From positions 48,268 to 68,267 of the IMG/VR virus record IMGVR_UViG_3300008107_000123: DNA of 20,000 nt, one strand, 5' to 3'. Within the stretch, counting starts at the first letter, position 1; each line of letters begins with the position of its first letter. Under the pieces are notes generated by a model. The model was not told the origin of the DNA, did not search any database, and saw nothing but the letters and a program-made list of their open reading frames with translations. The translations under genes were made by a program, and so were the position numbers. Of this stretch, positions 3,847 through 19,967 are shown one piece after another. Source of the DNA: an uncultured virus (IMG/VR IMGVR_UViG_3300008107_000123). Lineage: Duplodnaviria > Heunggongvirae > Uroviricota > Caudoviricetes.

Positions 3847-4430
3847 GTACGCAGTTCTCATGGGGCTTCCCCGAGGACGGTGCGGGCGTCGACGTCATGG
3901 CTCCGCAGCCCGAGGCCATGATCCGCGAAGCCTTGCGCGTCGGCGTCAACGCATCGACGTTTCCCCCGATGGAAGCCTCGCCAAACGGTCAAGGTTCCTC
4001 GGGGCTTGGCATCCAGAACGTCAAGCGCGGGTACCTCAACCTGGTCGTCCCCTACGACAGCTCCGTCGTCGGGGTGGACTTCCAGACCTCATCCAAGAGT
4101 TTCGTTGATGTCAGCGCGGAGCTGACCGGGTCGCTTCTGACCTCGGGACGGCCGGTCATGATCATGATCCGCTGCGGTGAGAATGGGTCACTCGGCGCTA
4201 GCGACACCGTCTACTTCAGCGTGCGTATCGACGGTGCCGAGGTAACCGGGAGCCTCGGGCTCGTCTACAAGAAGGCCGGTCCCGTCCCGATGACGACGGG
4301 AGTGTGGTTCGCGCAGCCGAGCGCCGGGACCCACACCTACTCCATGGTCTGGAAGGTCGACGCGCTTGCCACGACGACGCCGCTCATGACCCGCTCCTCC
4401 CGTCCCTTCCTGACAGTGGTGGAACTGTGA
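3843..4430 (+). CDS. Short tail fibre / receptor-binding-like virion protein (195 aa)
   Basis: ATGA overlap with the nozzle gene; C-terminal beta-sandwich pattern (GRPVMIMI...VYFSVRIDG...SAGTHTYSMVWKV) resembling fibre tips. Confidence 0.55.
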   Translation: MSTQFSWGFPEDGAGVDVMAPQPEAMIREALRVGVNASTFPPMEASPNGQGSSGLGIQNVKRGYLNLVVPYDSSVVGVDFQTSSKSFVDVSAELTGSLLTSGRPVMIMIRCGENGSLGASDTVYFSVRIDGAEVTGSLGLVYKKAGPVPMTTGVWFAQPSAGTHTYSMVWKVDALATTTPLMTRSSRPFLTVVEL

Positions 4431-12078: not shown

Positions 12079-12369
12079 GTGCAAGGATATGAAGCAGTGA
12101 ACCCCGATCCCTCGCCCGTCAACCACGGCCAGATCCAGTGGCGCGTCGATCAGTTGGAGAACCGCATGGACCGGCTCGAGCAGTCGGACGCGGCGCGCAC
12201 CGAGATCCTCGCACGCATGGATGAGAGGCAGAACGTCCTGGCAGAGGACGTCAAGCTGCTCGGCCGAGACATGGCTGGGATCAAGCGTTCCCTCTACACA
12301 CTCCTGTTCGCGCTGGCGCTCGCTGTCGTCAGCACCGCCATCGACATCGCAGTGAGGCTGACGACATGA
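12079..12369 (+). CDS. Coiled-coil protein with a C-terminal TM helix (holin-like / lysis accessory)
   Basis: Heptad pattern (VDQLENRMDRLE) followed by a hydrophobic stretch (LYTLLFALALAVV); ATGA-coupled to the endolysin. The start may instead be GTG 12097. Confidence 0.6.
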   Translation: MQGYEAVNPDPSPVNHGQIQWRVDQLENRMDRLEQSDAARTEILARMDERQNVLAEDVKLLGRDMAGIKRSLYTLLFALALAVVSTAIDIAVRLTT

Positions 12370-13055
12370 AGCTTGACCCCCGCTGGATCGGACGCAAGAA
12401 GCGGCTGAAGGCGTATGCCCTCTCGAAGGGGATCGCCATCCCGAGCGGCTACCGCATCAACCCCTACTGCGGCTCGGCCTGCCGCGAGCTGATCAAGCGC
12501 GTTCAGCGCCACCTCTACGGCGAGGCCGGCGTCACCGGTAAGTGGAACGGCGGCCTTGACGCCGCCATCGCGCCGAAGCTCACCACTCCGCAGCGCGCTC
12601 TGAGGTTCGCGCAGGGCGAGATCGGCATCAAGGAGCATCCGCCCGGCAGCAACAGTGGGCCAAGGGTCCGCGAGTTCCAGGCGGCATCGTCGCTCGGGGG
12701 GACGGGATGGCCATGGTGTGGAGCCCTGATGGCATGGGCGTATGGCAAGGCCGGCAGGCCGCTCAAGGGCTTCAACAATGCCTACGTCCCTGACTACGTC
12801 GCGACCGCCCGGCGCAATGAGGATGGCCTGCGCGTCGTCTCCGCCGAGAGGGCCCGCCCCGGGGATCTCGTCTGCTTCGACTGGGGCGGAGACGGGACTT
12901 CAGACCACATCGGGATTCTGGAGACGCCGGTTCGCAGCGGCCGTTTCCAGAGCATCGAGGGCAACACCTCGTTCAGCAACAACTCAAACGGCGGAGAAGT
13001 GATGCGCCGGGACCGCAACGTGTCCCAAGTGCAGTGCTTCATCCGCGTCGTGTAG
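12366..13055 (+). CDS. Endolysin with a C-terminal CHAP domain (229 aa)
   Basis: WPWCGALMAW (catalytic Cys), PGDLVCFDW...DHIGI (His) and IEGNTS are CHAP motifs; flanked by membrane-protein genes. Confidence 0.88.
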   Translation: MKLDPRWIGRKKRLKAYALSKGIAIPSGYRINPYCGSACRELIKRVQRHLYGEAGVTGKWNGGLDAAIAPKLTTPQRALRFAQGEIGIKEHPPGSNSGPRVREFQAASSLGGTGWPWCGALMAWAYGKAGRPLKGFNNAYVPDYVATARRNEDGLRVVSAERARPGDLVCFDWGGDGTSDHIGILETPVRSGRFQSIEGNTSFSNNSNGGEVMRRDRNVSQVQCFIRVV

Positions 13056-14579: not shown

Positions 14580-14795
14580 ATGTCATTGTCCGAACTGAAC
14601 CCACCTTCGACTCCCCCCCCTCTCGATTTACAGGCGGCTGAAGTTCGTCGGGTGATCCGCGAGATGCGACGGTCCGCCCGCAGGCTCGGACCGTGCGCTA
14701 CTTCTTCTTGGCTGACCGCGGCGGCGGAGTCTGCCGCCCGGGAGCTTTGCCGATGGGAGTCTCAAGAGCTGACTTCATCGCCGCCGCCGACCTAG
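14580..14795 (+). CDS. Hypothetical protein (71 aa), convergent with and overlapping the repressor 3' end
   Basis: GGAGGG RBS at 14570-14575 before ATG 14580, with a candidate promoter upstream. Confidence 0.45.
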   Translation: MSLSELNPPSTPPPLDLQAAEVRRVIREMRRSARRLGPCATSSWLTAAAESAARELCRWESQELTSSPPPT

Positions 14796-15030
14796 TTGCC
14801 GGCGCGGGGTCATCGGTGATCCCCACCAGGTAGTCGATGGAGACGTCCAGCACCATCGCAAGGCGCGACAGCGTCTCTACCGATGGGAAGGACTGGCCCT
14901 GCTGGATCCGGCACATGGACGCTGATGTCACGTTGGCGATCTGCGCCAGCGCCTTCTGCTGCGTCGTGCCACTGAGGCCGTAGAGCCTCTCTAAGAACTT
15001 GGTCCGGTCGATCAGCGATTCGTCGCTCAT
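14698..15030 (-). CDS. XRE/HTH_3 family immunity repressor (about 110 aa)
   Basis: QKALAQIANVTSASMCRIQQGQSFPSVETLSRLAMVLDVSIDYLVG is a canonical XRE HTH; divergent from the early operon. Alternative start GTG 15039. Confidence 0.88.
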   Translation of the reverse strand: MSDESLIDRTKFLERLYGLSGTTQQKALAQIANVTSASMCRIQQGQSFPSVETLSRLAMVLDVSIDYLVGITDDPAPATRSAAAMKSALETPIGKAPGRQTPPPRSAKKK

Positions 15031-15069
15031 GGTCGTCACGCTGCTCCGTGTCATTGGTGGTGTGGTGCG

Positions 15070-15098
15070 ACCATACGCACGCGCAACGGCAAACGCAA
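15070..15098 (-). promoter_or_regulatory. Repressor promoter TTGCGT-17-TATGGT
   Basis: On the minus strand, -35 at 15098-15093 and -10 (TANNNT) at 15075-15070, exactly 17 nt apart and about 40 nt upstream of the repressor ATG. Confidence 0.6.
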
Positions 15099-15240
15099 TG
15101 CGACGAGTGACCCGATGACGAGAATCTGAGACAGCCTGTCCCCTTACTAGCCGTAAGTATAGGTTGTCGCTCGTAGCGAGGAAATCTTTCTTGCGCGCCC
15201 CCCCGTCCGTATAGGTGCCGTCCGACCCCGTCGTTAGGTT

Positions 15241-15258
15241 TACGCAAACGCATACGCA
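15241..15258. repeat. Tandem hexamers TACGCA-AACGCA-TACGCA, candidate operator
   Basis: Directly after a TAGGTT (-10-like) hexamer at 15235-15240; a related 6-nt-period array occurs at 15074-15097. Confidence 0.45.
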
Positions 15259-15283
15259 GACACATGGGAACAAGGAGGGCACT

Positions 15284-15520
15284 ATGAGACAGCCGGTGGT
15301 TGTGACACCTGAGCAGATGCCGCAGCTAGTGGAGTGGGTCAGCGACTTCGGCCTGGACATGCTCAAGACCGCGTTCCGGTATCGGGACGAGATGAGTTCG
15401 GAGGCTCGCGGGGCCTTCGACAGCAACGTCAAGAACTTCACGGCGAAGGTCGGTGAGTTCTACCCAATCGAGGATCTCATCGCGGCTGCGATGGAAGAGG
15501 GGTCCGACGATGAGTCGTAA
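15284..15520 (+). CDS. Hypothetical early protein (78 aa, acidic)
   Basis: Strong AAGGAGG RBS at 15272-15278; first gene of the rightward early operon. Confidence 0.75.
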   Translation: MRQPVVVTPEQMPQLVEWVSDFGLDMLKTAFRYRDEMSSEARGAFDSNVKNFTAKVGEFYPIEDLIAAAMEEGSDDES

Positions 15521-17179: not shown

Positions 17180-17404
17180 GTGGAGAAGATGGTTTCGGTG
17201 GGCGAGGCAGCCGAGGTTGTTGGCGTCCACCCAAAGACGCTCGGGCGACTGATCCGAAACGGCGAGGTTCCTGCCGTGCGCGTCGGCCGGCAGTGGCGCA
17301 TCCGCCTGTCCGACCTCGAGCCGGGCTACCAAGCCCCGAGGAAGGCCGCCGCGAAGCGCGAGCCGACTGGCACGTTCACGCGGATCGCAGCCGAGCTTCC
17401 GTAA
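17180..17404 (+). CDS. xis: Excisionase / HTH_17 recombination directionality factor (about 74 aa)
   Basis: MVSVGEAAEVVGVHPKTLGRLIRNGEVPAVRVGRQWRIRLSDL; GAGGAG RBS at 17167-17172 (start 17177, 17180 or 17189); adjacent to the integrase. Confidence 0.85.
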   Translation: MEKMVSVGEAAEVVGVHPKTLGRLIRNGEVPAVRVGRQWRIRLSDLEPGYQAPRKAAAKREPTGTFTRIAAELP

Positions 17405-18395
17405 ACAGATGCGCGTAGTGATCAAGAGTCACCTTGGGCGAGTGCCCGAGCCACGACGCGACGGTCATGAGGTCGTGCCCGTCCGCGATCCATTGGCTGG
17501 CCGCCGTGTGCCTGAGGTCGTAGGGCACGCCCGTGAGGCCGAGCGTGGTGCGGGCCGGGGACCAGACCTTGCGCGTCCACATCTGCCAGTTGAGGTACTT
17601 GCCCCTGAGCGGCGGCGCGACCAGGTCGTACTGGTTTCGGCCCTCGGGTCCATACTTGGCGATGGCCTTCTTGAGCAGCGGGTCGGTTGGGATCGCCCGC
17701 TGGTGGACGCCCTTCGCCAGTTTCTCAGCCCCGTACTGCACGGAGCGCCAGACGCGCACCGACTCACCGATGTCGCGCCACTCGAGGGCCACCACCTCGG
17801 CGGGGCGCAGACCGGCGTAGGCCATGACGGCCACGATGAGGCGGTCACGGTCGGTCGGCATGGCCGCGATGATCTTGGCGACGGTCTTCCGGTCCCATGC
17901 GCGTCGGTCGGTCGGGGGCTCGGGCACCTTGCCGAGCAGCCTGACCGGGTTCCCGGGGATGAGCCCGTCGGACTCGGCAACTCCGAGCGCGGCGGACAGG
18001 ACCCGCGTGGCGTTGTTGGTGTTGACCGGCGGCGAGCCGTCACGCACGATCTCCGCGCGCCACTCCCTGACCCGGGCCCGACCCAGCTCGCGCAAGGGAA
18101 CGTGCCCGATGTAGGGATCTATCCACTTGTCCATGAGGGACGCCCGGCTGGTGCGCGTGGTCTTGGCCCACGCCACGCCGCTGGTGCGGACCCACTGGAT
18201 CAGCCAGTCATGCAGCGGCATGTCCGACGGCTCGGTCGGAGCGAATGCCCCGAGCCGCCGGCGACGGAGCATCTCGCCCTCATGGGCCTTGGCTTCGTCT
18301 TCCGAACGGAATGTTCGCGACCGGTTCCTGGTGCCCTCGCGCCAGCGAACCTCGAAGCTTGTCCCGCCCTTCCCCTCACGGCGATGTATCGACAT
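17376..18395 (-). CDS. int: Tyrosine integrase (339 aa)
   Basis: N-terminal arm-binding-like domain (FEVRWREG...SRTF); catalytic residues in AGLRPAE, YDLRHT, LGHS and HYAH. Confidence 0.95.
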   Translation of the reverse strand: MSIHRREGKGGTSFEVRWREGTRNRSRTFRSEDEAKAHEGEMLRRRRLGAFAPTEPSDMPLHDWLIQWVRTSGVAWAKTTRTSRASLMDKWIDPYIGHVPLRELGRARVREWRAEIVRDGSPPVNTNNATRVLSAALGVAESDGLIPGNPVRLLGKVPEPPTDRRAWDRKTVAKIIAAMPTDRDRLIVAVMAYAGLRPAEVVALEWRDIGESVRVWRSVQYGAEKLAKGVHQRAIPTDPLLKKAIAKYGPEGRNQYDLVAPPLRGKYLNWQMWTRKVWSPARTTLGLTGVPYDLRHTAASQWIADGHDLMTVASWLGHSPKVTLDHYAHLFTEARLRSA

Positions 18396-18402
18396 GAGCA
18401 GG

Positions 18403-18408
18403 AAGGTA
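18403..18408 (-). promoter_or_regulatory. Putative -10 (TACCTT) of a leaderless integrase transcript
   Basis: TANNNT ends 7 nt before the int ATG, and there is no SD sequence upstream of int. Confidence 0.45.
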
Positions 18409-18486
18409 CCCCAAGGAACAGAAGGATGTACGGATCCGTTCGCAACTGGGGAAATCAGGTTGATGGTCTAACTAGGAGGGAAGTCC

Positions 18487-19104
18487 TTGTTTAGCAGGCG
18501 ATTCAAGAAAAGCGGGCGACCGGGCTCGAACCGGCGACCGTCAGCTTGGGAAGCTGTTTCTGGGCAACGTCGCCCTGTTCCCAACGGTACCCGATCCTCC
18601 CGTCGCACGGGGCGATCCGGCCATTCCGTCATCCGTCGTGGTCCCTTCGTGTTCCTCTCTGCGGCGGGCCTCATGTTCGGAATCGGTTCGCAGATCGGCG
18701 TGGCAGGTTCATGGTCTAAGGCTTACGCAACTACATGTGCAAAGCATCAGGCACAGGAGAAGCGCGCCTGCGTCAAGCAGGCCAAGCGAGACGCCGTCCG
18801 CTGGCCCGCGTACCCCGTCACCACGACGGACCTCACTCGCCGTGACGTAGCGATCTCACGCTGGGTGAACCTCGGCCGCTGCGAGGCGGGCCACGGCTCG
18901 GGCTACGGCGGCGTGCGTTGGAACACCCCGAGCGGCTGGCGGTATCAGGGCGGCCTTGGCATGTACGACCGCAGCCACGCCTCCACCAGCCACCCCTACG
19001 GGTATGACGCCGGGCAGTGGAACTGGCAGACCCAGGTTCTTGTCGGCCAGAGGCTGATGGAGAAGTACGGGATCACTGCGTGGTCCGCATGGAGGTGCTG
19101 GTGA
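18487..19104 (+). CDS. Secreted or membrane-anchored resuscitation-promoting-factor (Rpf)-like transglycosylase (205 aa)
   Basis: AGGAGG at 18474-18479, 7 nt before TTG. Basic region, hydrophobic segment and AYA cleavage-like site. C-terminal WVNLGRCEAG...W.T..G.RYQGGL...Q..V..RL...G..AW...C matches the Rpf core (Glu at 18883). Alternative starts GTG 18649 or ATG 18673. Confidence 0.75.
   Translation: MFSRRFKKSGRPGSNRRPSAWEAVSGQRRPVPNGTRSSRRTGRSGHSVIRRGPFVFLSAAGLMFGIGSQIGVAGSWSKAYATTCAKHQAQEKRACVKQAKRDAVRWPAYPVTTTDLTRRDVAISRWVNLGRCEAGHGSGYGGVRWNTPSGWRYQGGLGMYDRSHASTSHPYGYDAGQWNWQTQVLVGQRLMEKYGITAWSAWRCW
18511..18556 (-). other. attP: attP common core: 3' half of tRNA-Gly(CCC)
   Basis: Minus strand reads CAGC-TTCCCAA-GCTG (anticodon arm, CCC), ACGGTC, GCCGG-TTCGAGC-CCGGT (T arm), CGCCCGC-T (acceptor 3' strand and discriminator). 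There is no matching 5' acceptor strand or D arm. It lies 115 nt upstream of int. Confidence 0.85.
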
Positions 19105-19967
19105 ATGCCTCCCCACCCCTCACAGCCGGATCTCTTTTCTCAGGCGTCGGTGGCATGGACATCGGGCTCGAGTGGGCCGGGTTCCAGCACAAGTTCTTCG
19201 CTGAGATCGATCCCTACTGCCGAGCAGTCCTTGAGGCACGGTTCCCCGGCGTCCCTGTCTACGAAGACGTCAAGCTCGTCGACGCCGACGCGGGCTACGT
19301 CGACCTCCTCTGCGGAGGCTTCCCCTGCCAGGACCTCAGTGTCGCCGGCAAGCGAGCCGGGCTCGCAGGCGAGCGCAGCGGACTCTTCTTCGAGTTCATG
19401 CGAATCGTTGACGCTCTTCGTCCCCGAGCCATCCTCATTGAGAACGTCGAAGGGCTCTACAGCTCTGGAAGCCCTAAAGGCGCAGACTTCGGGGTCGTCC
19501 TCGACTCGCTGGCCGAACGCAGGTATCTGGCGTCGTGGCGAACTCTTGACGCGCAGCACTTCGGGGTGCCACAGCGAAGGCGACGCGTGTTCGTGTGCGC
19601 CATCGCTGACGGAGATCCTCGAGCCGAACGCATCGGAGAAGTACTCGCTGTCGCAGAAGGCAGCGGCGGGGATTCTTCGACGAGCGACCCGGCGTGGCCG
19701 CTCTCTGCCTCCGCAGTTGGACGAAGCACTGAGGGCAGTGGCGGGCGAATCGTCGGAGCCCTGTCAGGACGAAGCGTGACGCGCTTGGACGAACAGTGCG
19801 TGGGGGGGGGTCAGCTTGTGACTGCGGCTGTGACCTCCAAGTGGGCAAAGGGGAGCGGCGGCCCTGCCGGCGACGAGATCCAGAACGTCGTGTGGTCGGC
19901 GCGCTCTCCGCTCGCGGATACACCAAGTACACCGATCAGGAGTTCGTCCGACGGGGGCAACTCGTGA
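19101..19967 (+). CDS. DNA (cytosine-5) methyltransferase, motifs I-VIII; the frame ends without motifs IX/X
   Basis: GGAGG RBS with GTGA overlap; SLFSGVGG (I), GGFPCQDLS (IV), IENVEG (VI), QRRRRVF (VIII). The coding signal appears to continue in the -1 frame from about 19892. Confidence 0.9.
   Translation: MNASPPLTAGSLFSGVGGMDIGLEWAGFQHKFFAEIDPYCRAVLEARFPGVPVYEDVKLVDADAGYVDLLCGGFPCQDLSVAGKRAGLAGERSGLFFEFMRIVDALRPRAILIENVEGLYSSGSPKGADFGVVLDSLAERRYLASWRTLDAQHFGVPQRRRRVFVCAIADGDPRAERIGEVLAVAEGSGGDSSTSDPAWPLSASAVGRSTEGSGGRIVGALSGRSVTRLDEQCVGGGQLVTAAVTSKWAKGSGGPAGDEIQNVVWSARSPLADTPSTPIRSSSDGGNS
19105..19779 (+). CDS. Alternative-frame protein nested in the MTase gene (putative beta-type subunit)
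   Basis: 224-codon +1 frame ORF; C-terminal RWPNAG...G...SLTEILE...KYSLSQKAAAGILRRATRRGRSLP..L..AL looks like structured protein. Confidence 0.6.
   Translation: MPPHPSQPDLFSQASVAWTSGSSGPGSSTSSSLRSIPTAEQSLRHGSPASLSTKTSSSSTPTRATSTSSAEASPARTSVSPASEPGSQASAADSSSSSCESLTLFVPEPSSLRTSKGSTALEALKAQTSGSSSTRWPNAGIWRRGELLTRSTSGCHSEGDACSCAPSLTEILEPNASEKYSLSQKAAAGILRRATRRGRSLPPQLDEALRAVAGESSEPCQDEA

Follow-up and report, generated by a model that had tools for sequence, protein, structure and literature searches.

A putative attachment site within the signal-peptide coding region of a phage Rpf-like gene: a possible link between integration state and expression

Results and discussion

In the freshwater phage described here, the putative attachment site (attP) is probably placed not in an intergenic region but within the 5' part of a gene for an Rpf-like protein, the real start of which would lie to the left of the attachment core. 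The source genome, known from freshwater metagenomes, is that of a temperate phage, and the 20-kb stretch of DNA analysed (the window) forms its right-hand part. The best explanation of the locus as a whole, to which we assign a probability of about 0.65, is that a long form of the protein is translated from TTG 18487 and that the intact precursor can be made only from unintegrated DNA. That this arrangement acts as a functional switch, with the gene silent in lysogens, is proposed more tentatively, at somewhat less than even odds. Of the interpretation given in the preliminary description, the start to the left of the core and the separation of ribosome-binding site (RBS) and start upon integration have stood up to the present analysis; the switch itself is what we infer from them.

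The integration module and the putative attachment core

The tyrosine integrase of the phage (339 aa; 17376..18395, minus strand; PF00589, E 1.4e-13; phrog_1, E 3.7e-44) is divergent from the Rpf-like gene and adjoins the putative attP core at a distance of 115 nt. Homologues of 48-60% identity occur in five further lineages, where the neighbouring architecture is the same. On the minus strand, the core (46 nt at about 18510..18556) corresponds to a tRNA-Gly(CCC) in its 3' portion, extending from the anticodon stem as far as the discriminator, and is thus antisense to the Rpf-like gene; read on the plus strand, it forms codons 9-24 of that gene, SGRPGSNRRPSAWE. Because other organisms' tRNA-Gly contigs, from four metagenomes, match the phage only over 18507/18510/18511..18553/18556 (with 4-5 mismatches), the identity block was placed at approximately 18510-18556, and this block is conserved in five lineages. 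An Rfam tRNA match on the minus strand (18513-18575, anticodon loop TTCCCAA) scored 17.9 bits (E 0.52) and so fell short of the gathering score, and ARAGORN detected no whole tRNA.

The core is flanked by copies of the motif GTTC[GC]. In the candidate P arm (18411..18473), which coincides with the divergent intergenic region between the integrase and Rpf-like genes, the motif occurs at 18415 in the minus and at 18438 in the plus orientation; in the candidate P' arm (18557..18729, plus strand), which overlaps the rest of the presequence, it occurs at 18577, 18651, 18675 and 18686. The P-arm motifs lie at -94..-96 from the core in four of four lineages and at -71..-73 in three of the four, and the P'-arm offsets of +66, +140, +164 and +175 are common to the lineages. 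The full set of conserved offsets (-95, -81, -72, +66, +131, +140, +164 and +175, each in 2-4 of 4 lineages) shows a spacing of 9-11 bp, and the motifs form invariant islands in alignment A3. The repeats may represent arm-type binding sites of the integrase, and they appear to mark an attP of about 290 bp that overlaps the signal-peptide coding region. A rightward promoter, if any, must fall within 18411..18473; a promoter and terminator scan of 18250-18800 found neither element, including no sigma-70-like promoter.

Search for integrated copies and the host

All 11 core-carrying sequences are in the attP form, as are the bridging contigs of 4/4 metagenome runs, and two pattern scans of IMG/VR for the core returned attP-form contigs only. 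No attL/attR junctions were found in 17 related loci, the two IMG/VR scans, the four metagenome runs or 401 + 301 genomes, although the absence of junctions in sampled data does not show their absence in nature; likewise, no phage::host junctions were present among the contigs of the four runs. A scan of genome contigs for integrated copies recovered only L008, a contig of a Nanopelagicales MAG that carries a serine recombinase and does not contain the core, and the MAG itself has no matching tRNA-Gly. In the 401 genomes of the MAG's class, the core pattern was not detected with up to 2 mismatches, and no exact host tRNA was found. At E<=1e-40, none of the 301 genomes from the MAG's order matched the integrase profile, and a scan with the integrase as a single protein yielded a near-identical contig only. 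In run X1, one loose end before 18510 carries ATTAGCAGG at a phage-like distance; it could be the end of a related prophage.

The absence of any junction or lysogen, the missing tRNA and integrase matches in the genomes of this class and order, and the score of the block under the Rfam threshold would all fit a tRNA-like block that is not an active crossover site, either as a relic or in a phage that does not integrate or integrates elsewhere, in which case the gene would never be split. We consider this very improbable. The locus has the standard layout of a tyrosine-integrase module, with the integrase beside a block that spans the 3' part of a tRNA and phased repeats on both arms. Moreover, a G/A polymorphism at position 18524 of the phage core is paralleled by a G/A polymorphism among the tRNA-Gly contigs of the same samples, and another lineage, whose integrase has diverged, has in the same place a different core that is likewise tRNA-like. 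That no lysogens turned up would be explained if, as is probable, the hosts are uncultured. We regard 18510-18556 as the presumptive crossover site.

The start of the Rpf-like gene

The Rpf-like precursor is encoded by a single ORF of 205 aa (18487..19104, plus strand). The preliminary description had reported a perfect AGGAGG at 18474-18479, with a spacer of 7 nt to TTG 18487, and a frame that stays open from this codon through the antisense tRNA-Gly core (codons 9-24) into a signal-peptide-like segment and an Rpf domain; the former is exact to the base and the latter, with these codon numbers, was confirmed, the final segment being of Rpf fold. It is also correct that no in-frame ATG, GTG or TTG intervenes between 18487 and GTG 18649, the next being ATG 18673 and GTG 18700. 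The Shine-Dalgarno (SD) sequence (18474..18479, plus strand) forms a duplex of -10.7 kcal/mol with the 16S tail, whereas a strength of -10 kcal/mol or lower is attained by just 2.8% of the window's 1597 ATG/GTG/TTG triplets. The start codon of the long form (18487..18489, plus strand) is replaced by GTG in a natural variant of 3% divergence from metagenome run X9 (18487 T>G, start to start) and by ATG or GTG in L003, L012, L013, L027 and L039.

Six lineages carrying the integrase family were compared (WIN/L002/L009; L003/L004/L010/L011; L012; L013; L027; L039), two of which, L027 and L039, were retrieved by the core pattern and the integrase profile and not via the Rpf-like protein, and have the same design; in L039 a different, tRNA-like core of T-arm type occupies the same place. 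The preliminary description had proposed to look in relatives for a conserved RBS, start and open frame, and all six lineages show them. A strong SD and a start codon (TTG, GTG or ATG, according to lineage) stand to the left of the core by 24-34 nt in every lineage, with pairing energies of -10.7 kcal/mol in the window and -11.8 to -12.7 kcal/mol in the other five; the pre-core length differs by an in-frame 3 nt (8 vs 9 codons). Since so few triplets pair this well and the site is kept in 6/6 lineages, the association of SD and start with the core is more than would be expected by chance. From the start to +162 there are no stops in the reading frame of any lineage, and the other two frames contain 18 stops in the same span over 12 lineage-frames. 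Shuffled flanks remain open with P 0.30-0.51 each, for a product of 0.0014, a value that overstates independence because the six lineages are related.

The octamer TTAGCAGG (18491..18498, plus strand; columns 121-128 of alignment A3) is invariant in five lineages and reads TTTGCAGG in L039. Its possible role as a genome-wide operator was ruled out, as only 4 copies occur in 68 kb, with no enrichment. A minus-strand ORF at 18468-18674 (68 aa) was dropped as a candidate gene; it has no PHROG match.

A functional start to the right of the core, at GTG 18649 (18649..18651, plus strand) or ATG 18673 (18673-18675), would render integration harmless, the left SD and start being incidental or a dispensable tail and the gene an ordinary att-adjacent cargo gene. 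GTG 18649 would produce MFLSAAGLMFGIGSQIGVAGSWSKAYA, which includes a usable h-region with the AYA site, and an in-frame ATG or GTG at +162/+164 is kept in five of the six lineages. Public gene calls begin at these positions, the 99%-identical protein P0004 at ATG 18673 and the mosaic relative P0025 at the equivalent of GTG 18649; the upstream GC3 is flat, and L005, L016 and L008 are relatives whose presequences are short and ordinary and have starts of their own. Nevertheless, we judge a right-of-core start to be improbable in the lineages compared. The two codons show weak SD pairing, with energies of -2.7 and -5.5 kcal/mol for the window itself and of +0.8 to -6.0 kcal/mol for their equivalents elsewhere. 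Right-of-core starts in general pair more weakly than the left start, the ranges being -1.4 to -9.0 kcal/mol for L039 and +0.8 to -8.9 kcal/mol for the remaining five lineages and the strongest being TTG +8 inside the L039 core (-9.0) and GTG +54 in L013 (-8.9). The internal starts leave no K/R ahead of the h-region, which in WIN and L013 is upstream of, or bisected by, the +162 ATG, and the conservation of this ATG coincides with a GTTCG arm-type motif (ATGTTCG). Such a start would, in addition, leave unexplained the strong SD and start in all six lineages, the turnover among TTG, GTG and ATG, and the frame that is always open.

The presequence

The long form from TTG 18487 would carry a presequence composed of an Arg-rich n-region, an h-region, FVFLSAAGLMFGI (residues 54-66), and an AYA cleavage-like site. 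By hydropathy and charge, a signal peptide with a basic n-region, a hydrophobic h-region and a small-residue cleavage motif is predicted in 6/6 lineages: the best 13-aa hydrophobic window has a mean KD of 1.94-2.35, the preceding 12 aa contain 2-4 K/R, and AYA, AAA or TAA immediately precedes the conserved PC/TC of the mature part. The n-region is unusually long (53-68 aa) and contains 9-15 K+R vs 1-5 D+E.

The link between core and mature domain measures 180, 180, 183 and 180 nt in four lineages. Its conserved length and the GTTCG islands show a constraint at the level of the DNA, i.e., of attP, and this might account for some of the conservation even if the stretch were not translated. GC3 in the link is flat (0.58-0.65) compared with that of the mature domain (0.85-0.90); GC3 periodicity was discarded as a coding test, since undisputed signal-peptide codons also lack high GC3. 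The N-terminal extension is rich in R, S, G and P, as the translation of GC-rich non-coding DNA would be.

The mature domain and the neighbouring methyltransferase

The predicted secreted, mature part (18730..19101, plus strand) consists of a helical N-terminal portion and an Rpf-fold catalytic domain. The earlier designation of the protein as Rpf-like is upheld by fold and by profile, but not at the threshold of Pfam itself. The whole protein gave no match in Pfam (E<=0.01) or PHROGs, and its C-terminal 94 aa scored 11.3 bits against PF06737 (E 0.57), as opposed to a gathering cut-off of 27. The mosaic relative P0025 reaches 32.6 bits, and PF06737 is present in 89 of the 132 profile-search matches (E<=0.001). 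When the profile was compared with the PDB, only RpfC and RpfE were found, and HMMER paired CEaG with the CESG of RpfC. The catalytic Glu and the cysteine pair (Cys132-Glu133 and Cys204) are invariant in 23/23 sequences of alignment A1.

An AF2 model of residues 83-205 (pLDDT 95.3, pTM 0.85) displays the lysozyme-like Rpf fold. It supersedes a model of the full 205 aa (23 sequences), in which the overall pLDDT was 49.6 and the first 88 residues were below 50. Among the Foldseek matches listed, every PDB entry at ranks 1-15 is an Rpf structure (4cge, 3eo5, 4emn, 4ow1, 5e27 and 1xsf; RpfE, RpfB, RpfC and an Rpf domain). The crystal-structure chains were matched with a probability of 1.00, a TM(target) of 0.70-0.84 and an rmsd of 1.7-2.5 A, at E-values of just 0.03-0.5; full-length RpfB entries have a lower TM, 1xsf has a probability of 0.93 and a TM of 0.58, and c-type lysozymes rank next. 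The model thus supports an Rpf fold with an intact catalytic Glu for the mature domain, and the protein may have muralytic or growth-stimulating activity.

The Rpf-like gene is followed by a gene for a C-5 cytosine DNA methyltransferase (19101..19967, plus strand; PF00145, E 4.7e-47), the GTG of which, at 19101, overlaps the Rpf-like stop codon (GTGA), so that translational coupling of the two is plausible. Relative to the 426-aa methyltransferase of L003, its homology changes frame near a run of nine G residues (19802-19810). A repressor-like gene with an HTH motif is encoded separately, at 14698-15441.

Proposed consequences of integration

According to the preferred reading, the AGGAGG would direct the ribosome to TTG 18487, between the integrase gene and the core, and the ribosome would then pass through the antisense tRNA-Gly(CCC) core and the P' arm, the translation of which would serve as a long, Arg-rich, cleavable n-region. 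An n-region tolerates nearly any basic sequence, and an att site can therefore sit there. Beyond the h-region and the AYA site would follow the secreted domain of Rpf (lysozyme-like) fold. As the gene most likely starts to the left of the core, integration would inevitably part the gene body from its RBS, its start and its first 8 codons. A crossover at any point of 18510-18556 would keep the SD, the start and these codons, and probably the promoter as well, beside the integrase gene and the rebuilt tRNA at one end of the prophage; the opposite end would receive the headless gene body with the translationally coupled methyltransferase gene. With start signals and body at opposite prophage ends, the full secretory precursor would be made only from unintegrated (i.e., infecting, excised or replicating) DNA. 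The weaker internal GTG 18649 could still give rise to a secreted product from the prophage.

The latter possibility leads to a reading in which both states are used: the long form would be made from unintegrated DNA, and a shorter form, from an internal start or host signals, would serve the lysogen as a lysogenic-conversion factor, integration altering the amount or export route of the protein without acting as an off-switch. The Rpf-like gene adjoins the integration module in all relatives examined, whatever the type of module (tyrosine integrase with tRNA-Gly; tyrosine integrase with a sense tRNA-Ser fragment in L016/L017; serine recombinase in L008/L014 and L005), and this is the classic position of cargo expressed from prophages. 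Internal in-frame starts are found in every lineage. The L016 gene carries an SD and an ATG of its own to the right of the core; once the phage had integrated, this gene would stand immediately downstream of the rebuilt tRNA and be oriented like it. In the tRNA-Gly lineages, however, the gene is antisense to the tRNA, so that read-through from the tRNA cannot drive it, and the internal starts are weak; we therefore hold this reading to be unlikely, though less so than a right-of-core start. Because L016, at least, does start to the right of its core, the proposed switch is not general to the Rpf-like gene family.

Returning to the preferred reading, the locus can be pictured in a broader, and still more tentative, form that we consider possible but somewhat doubtful. 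In a family of freshwater actinophage-like viruses, attP would lie where the leading gene of an operon encodes the n-region of its signal peptide, with the antisense tRNA serving as coding sequence; the operon, for the Rpf-like protein and a DNA methyltransferase, would be decapitated in the prophage and rebuilt upon excision or infection. It would thereby constitute an integration-state switch of effector genes, in which a cell-wall-remodelling and possibly dormancy-breaking factor, together with methylation, is timed to lytic growth. If true, an effector operon would join the repressors (BPs) and integrases (SSV) as a target of control by an attP within a gene, under the simple rule that enzyme and coupled methyltransferase are made solely from unintegrated DNA. 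The sequence-tolerant n-region of a signal peptide could then house a recombination site, with translation of the antisense tRNA, and a phage enzyme of Rpf fold would be tied to the lysis-lysogeny state in freshwater bacteria, among which dormancy and slow growth are common. For annotation, the case carries a warning, in that gene callers would truncate such genes, as in P0004, called from an internal ATG.

Comparison with known systems

Our literature searches, which covered a collection of open-access papers only, turned up no report of an attP that lies within the 5' end of a secreted-enzyme gene, and a blastn search with 17300-19200 gave no match in the phage collection. Dependence of expression on contiguity across an att site is known from lambda sib retroregulation and from the circularisation-dependent expression of Tn916-type elements, which act via an RNA processing site or a promoter across the joint. 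In the present locus, by contrast, the translation start and the first codons themselves would be severed.

Like mycobacteriophage BPs and its relatives, the phage has its putative attP in a coding sequence beside a tyrosine integrase. In BPs, the site is in the 3' part of the repressor gene 33, and the protein becomes active when integration strips it of a C-terminal degradation tag. With attP inside the coding sequence, the gene differs between virus and prophage, and integration is itself a regulatory event (PMC4557955). Here, the split gene encodes an Rpf-fold protein and not a regulator, the site is in its 5' part, and removal of the RBS, start and first codons would be expected to cause loss, rather than gain, of expression. 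The locus thus appears to resemble the BPs-type system in principle without being a member of it. The 'suicidal' integrases of the SSV type, in archaeal viruses and plasmids, contain the att site inside the int gene, so that integration splits a gene of the element itself to opposite prophage ends and excision rebuilds it; the review PMC8371274 describes them as found only in archaea. The likeness would lie in this splitting and rebuilding, but in our locus, which belongs to a bacterial virus, the integrase gene is intact and a cargo or early gene would be split.

The encoded protein shares with RpfB, RpfC and RpfE of M. tuberculosis (PF06737) the fold, the catalytic Glu in CE(A/S)G, the flanking Cys pair and the secreted location (predicted here), and differs from them in its score below the Pfam threshold and in an additional helical N-terminal part of about 40 aa. 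An Rpf-like motif 1 is also present in the tape measure protein of mycobacteriophage Barnyard; PMC1796659 documents that phages employ such muralytic motifs and links peptidoglycan hydrolysis to the infection of non-growing cells. The protein of the window is, in contrast, a free and predicted secreted protein, not a tape-measure motif. Relative to the known architectures with an attP within a gene, i.e., the BPs repressor and the SSV integrase, the locus is new in that the gene that would be split is one for a secreted enzyme, and in that the site lies at its 5' end.

Genomic setting of the Rpf-like gene

The virus record measures 68,267 bp and has a completeness rating of 91%; the window is its final 20 kb. 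It carries virion genes, an endolysin gene (12366-13055), a minus-strand HTH repressor-like gene (14698-15441), exonuclease genes and a minus-strand tyrosine integrase gene (17376-18395; PF00589). To the right of the integrase lies a 205-aa ORF (18487-19104, the Rpf-like gene), whose stop is overlapped, as GTGA, by the GTG start (19101) of a C-5 cytosine methyltransferase (MTase) gene. Seventeen DNA runs with freshwater, lake or "fungus metagenome" labels contain 50% or more of the words sampled from 18200-19300. The related locus L009 (4515-6615) runs 2.1 kb past the window end (20000), and this extra sequence has no match to the start of the window's contig, from which it follows that the record lacks sequence at this end and is not circularly closed.

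The homology of the MTase gene to the single 426-aa MTase of the related locus L003 changes frame just past a G9 run (19802-19810; region 19824-19890), both in the window and in L009; the run is absent from locus L002. Possible causes are phase variation of the tract, a frameshift and a fault in the assembly. At 19270-19305, a contig of metagenome run X9 has 106 other letters in place of 34 nt of the gene, which marks a variable segment within the methyltransferase.

Rpf-like domain

The Rpf-like label of the preliminary description holds for the fold, the profile matches and the residues Cys132, Glu133 and Cys204, which are invariant, but not at the threshold of Pfam PF06737, where the window domain scores 11.3 bits versus a cut-off of 27. 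Against the PDB sequence set, a profile of 23 homologues matches RpfC and RpfE alone (E 0.017-0.029), with CE(A)G aligned with CESG. In a set of 1.84 billion proteins, the same profile retrieves 149 cluster representatives (E<=0.001); most of these, together with the window's mature domain, made up a Pfam scan set of 132 sequences, 89 of which contain PF06737 and five also G5 domains, as in RpfB. The AF2 model of the mature domain, built with an expanded alignment, has a pLDDT of 95.3. Its best Foldseek PDB matches are all Rpf structures, followed by c-type lysozymes; for RpfE (4cge) the TM(target) is 0.82-0.84, the rmsd 1.7-1.8 A and the probability 1.00, but the E-values are no better than 0.03-0.5. 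The window protein is a divergent, putative enzyme of the Rpf fold, to which a further helical segment of about 40 aa is added at the N-terminal side.

Start of the gene left of the core

The preliminary description placed the start at TTG 18487, behind AGGAGG (18474-18479) and a 7-nt spacer and ahead of an antisense tRNA-Gly(CCC) core, and all of its coordinates are correct. The next in-frame ATG/GTG/TTG is GTG 18649, followed by ATG 18673. Relatives were gathered independently of existing gene calls: protein-based scans, run on contigs of viral, genome and metagenome origin, yielded 17 loci. The same antisense core occurs in eight of them, representing four lineages (L002 and L009; L003, L004, L010 and L011; L012; L013); L027 came from a core-pattern scan and L039 from an integrase-profile scan. 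L039 has an integrase of 48% identity and, in place of the shared core, another sequence resembling a T arm. The ribosome-binding site, the start and the open frame across the core are kept in all six lineages.

In each of them a strong Shine-Dalgarno (SD) sequence (AGGAGGGAG, AAGGGAGTGAG, AAGGAGG or TAGGAGG) stands 5-10 nt ahead of a start codon located 24-34 nt left of the core. The pairing of these sequences with the 16S tail amounts to -10.7, -12.7, -12.0, -12.7, -11.8 and -12.0 kcal/mol; among the window's 1597 start-like triplets, just 2.8% reach -10 kcal/mol. The window has TTG as the start codon where the other lineages have ATG or GTG, and a natural variant from run X9 (about 3% divergent) carries 18487 T>G, a change from start to start. 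The frame from the left start into the mature domain contains no stops in any of the six lineages, versus 18 stops across the 12 other lineage-frames; dinucleotide-preserving shuffled flanks remain open with P 0.30-0.51 each, the product of 0.0014 being optimistic because the lineages are related. The length of the pre-core segment differs among lineages by exactly one codon. In-frame starts right of the core pair more weakly (+0.8 to -8.9 kcal/mol in five lineages, -1.4 to -9.0 in L039), the best being GTG +54 of L013 (-8.9) and TTG +8 within the L039 core (-9.0). We consider it likely that the gene starts left of the core.

Codons 2-4 include TTAGCAGG (18491-18498), which five lineages share without any change, even at third codon positions, amid neighbouring codons that vary; its L039 equivalent is TTTGCAGG. 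The loose end of a run X1 contig bears ATTAGCAGG at the same distance from a tRNA-Gly block.

Presequence and signal peptide

In all six lineages the presequence comprises 82-87 aa, with a very basic n-region of 53-68 aa (9-15 K+R versus 1-5 D+E), a hydrophobic window (mean KD 1.9-2.35) and an AYA/AAA/TAA motif directly ahead of the (P/T)C-x-x-H that is conserved in the mature protein. As had been proposed, the basic n-region depends on the left start: initiation at GTG 18649 would retain the h-region (FVFLSAAGLMFGI, residues 54-66) without positive charge, and ATG 18673 would split that region in half. In distant relatives of another build (L005, L016 and L008) the signal peptide is short and of the ordinary kind, and each gene has its own start. 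Given the h-region and these short signal peptides, the mature part is clearly a predicted secreted protein, and the long n-region is peculiar to lineages with the att core inside the gene. A 116-aa metagenome protein, P0025, combines the window's signal peptide (VFLCAAGLMFGIGSQIGVAGSWSK) with a different, Pfam-positive PF06737 domain, a mosaic that suggests cargo exchange downstream of an attP-embedded presequence.

Anatomy of the putative attP

The minus strand carries the tRNA-like element, whose anticodon loop reads TTCCCAA. The Rfam tRNA score of the element (17.9 bits, E 0.52) is below threshold because the 5' half is absent, and ARAGORN finds no whole tRNA. The tRNA-Gly genes of other organisms, on contigs from four metagenomes, align just to 18507/18510/18511..18553/18556 and then continue into the tRNA 5' half; these limits define an identity block of about 18510-18556, and the core indeed corresponds to codons 9-24. 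At 18524, a T-loop position, G/A separates the window from L002/L009, and the same G/A is found among abundant tRNA-Gly contigs of the same samples, which fits a functional att core.

Outside the core, the sole invariant islands of the five-lineage alignment are the integrase start, TTAGCAGG and paired GTTC motifs in both arms. Relative to the core, the GTTC[GC] motifs occupy conserved positions (-94/-96, inverted, -81, -72, +66, +131, +140, +164 and +175), with a spacing of 9-11 bp, and are read as candidate arm-type integrase sites. The attP would then span about 18411-18700 and overlap signal-peptide codons, where GTTC motifs fall within the codons for MFGIGS (ATG TTC GGA ATC GGT TCG). Such an overlap would account for the constant core-to-mature-domain link (180, 180, 183 and 180 nt, despite diverged sequence), the conserved FG-x-x-S peptide and the P0025 mosaic. 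DNA-level constraint thus explains part of the conservation in the overlap, and GC3 of the link is flat (0.58-0.65, versus 0.85-0.90 in the mature domain), providing no independent coding signal.

Predicted consequence of integration

Given the leftward orientation of the tRNA, two junctions would result from recombination at any point of 18510-18556. The first would join the integrase gene, the P arm, the SD, the start, eight codons and the core to the host tRNA 5' half, rebuilding the tRNA; the second would join the host 3' flank and the core to the P' arm, the Rpf-like gene body and the MTase gene. The full precursor would require unintegrated DNA, as probably would transcription from any promoter in the 91-nt intergenic region between the integrase and Rpf-like genes. 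Every one of the 11 core-bearing sequences has the attP form, and so do the bridging contigs in four of four runs; searches for a lysogen or an exact host tRNA gave 0/401 and 0/301 genomes. The architecture is probably real, and we assign a probability of roughly 0.65 to the statement as a whole, namely a left start combined with attP function. The functional integration switch and the dormancy-breaking role are hypotheses.

Association with other integration modules

In every relative examined the Rpf-like gene adjoins an integration module, and beyond the tRNA-Gly type further arrangements are found. In L016 (2740-2905), L017 (2722-2800) and L006/L018, a sense tRNA-Ser(TGA)-like 3' fragment and a same-strand tyrosine integrase immediately precede the Rpf-like relative, and after integration the gene would stand directly behind the rebuilt tRNA gene. 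In L016 an SD and an ATG belonging to the gene itself lie right of the core; an ATG of L017, which has a fair SD (-9.8 kcal/mol), stands 18 nt left of the tRNA-Ser-like fragment, and its frame is open. In L008/L014 a divergent large serine recombinase gene is located about 40 nt from the Rpf-like gene, and in L005 a serine recombinase gene lies 1.2 kb downstream; these make three module types in all. The L008 contig belongs to a Nanopelagicales MAG, and the TTG start of its Rpf-like gene (86% identical) is overlapped by a perfect inverted repeat, GTTTGC-ttcc-GCAAAC (about 3880-3905), which may be the attP of the serine-recombinase module or an operator.

Proximity to attP characterises the Rpf-like gene family, and the split-gene design is confined to the tRNA-Gly integrase family, perhaps with L017; this distribution leaves room for the gene being prophage-expressed cargo in some lineages. 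For the tRNA-Gly lineages themselves, the split of start and gene body remains the preferred reading.

Comparison with known systems

Among the open-access full texts searched, no description was found that places an attP at the 5' end of a gene for a secreted enzyme, or in which an antisense tRNA doubles as coding sequence for a signal peptide. Further comparators are lambda sib retroregulation and the circularisation-dependent expression of Tn916. Rpf-like muralytic motifs are known from mycobacteriophage tape-measure proteins and have been associated with the infection of cells in stationary phase (PMC1796659), and SSV-type integrases, whose own gene is split on integration, are described as exclusive to archaea (PMC8371274). 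The nearest analogue in logic is the integration-dependent immunity of mycobacteriophage BPs, in which attP is located inside the repressor gene, in its 3' part, and a degradation tag is lost on integration (PMC4557955).
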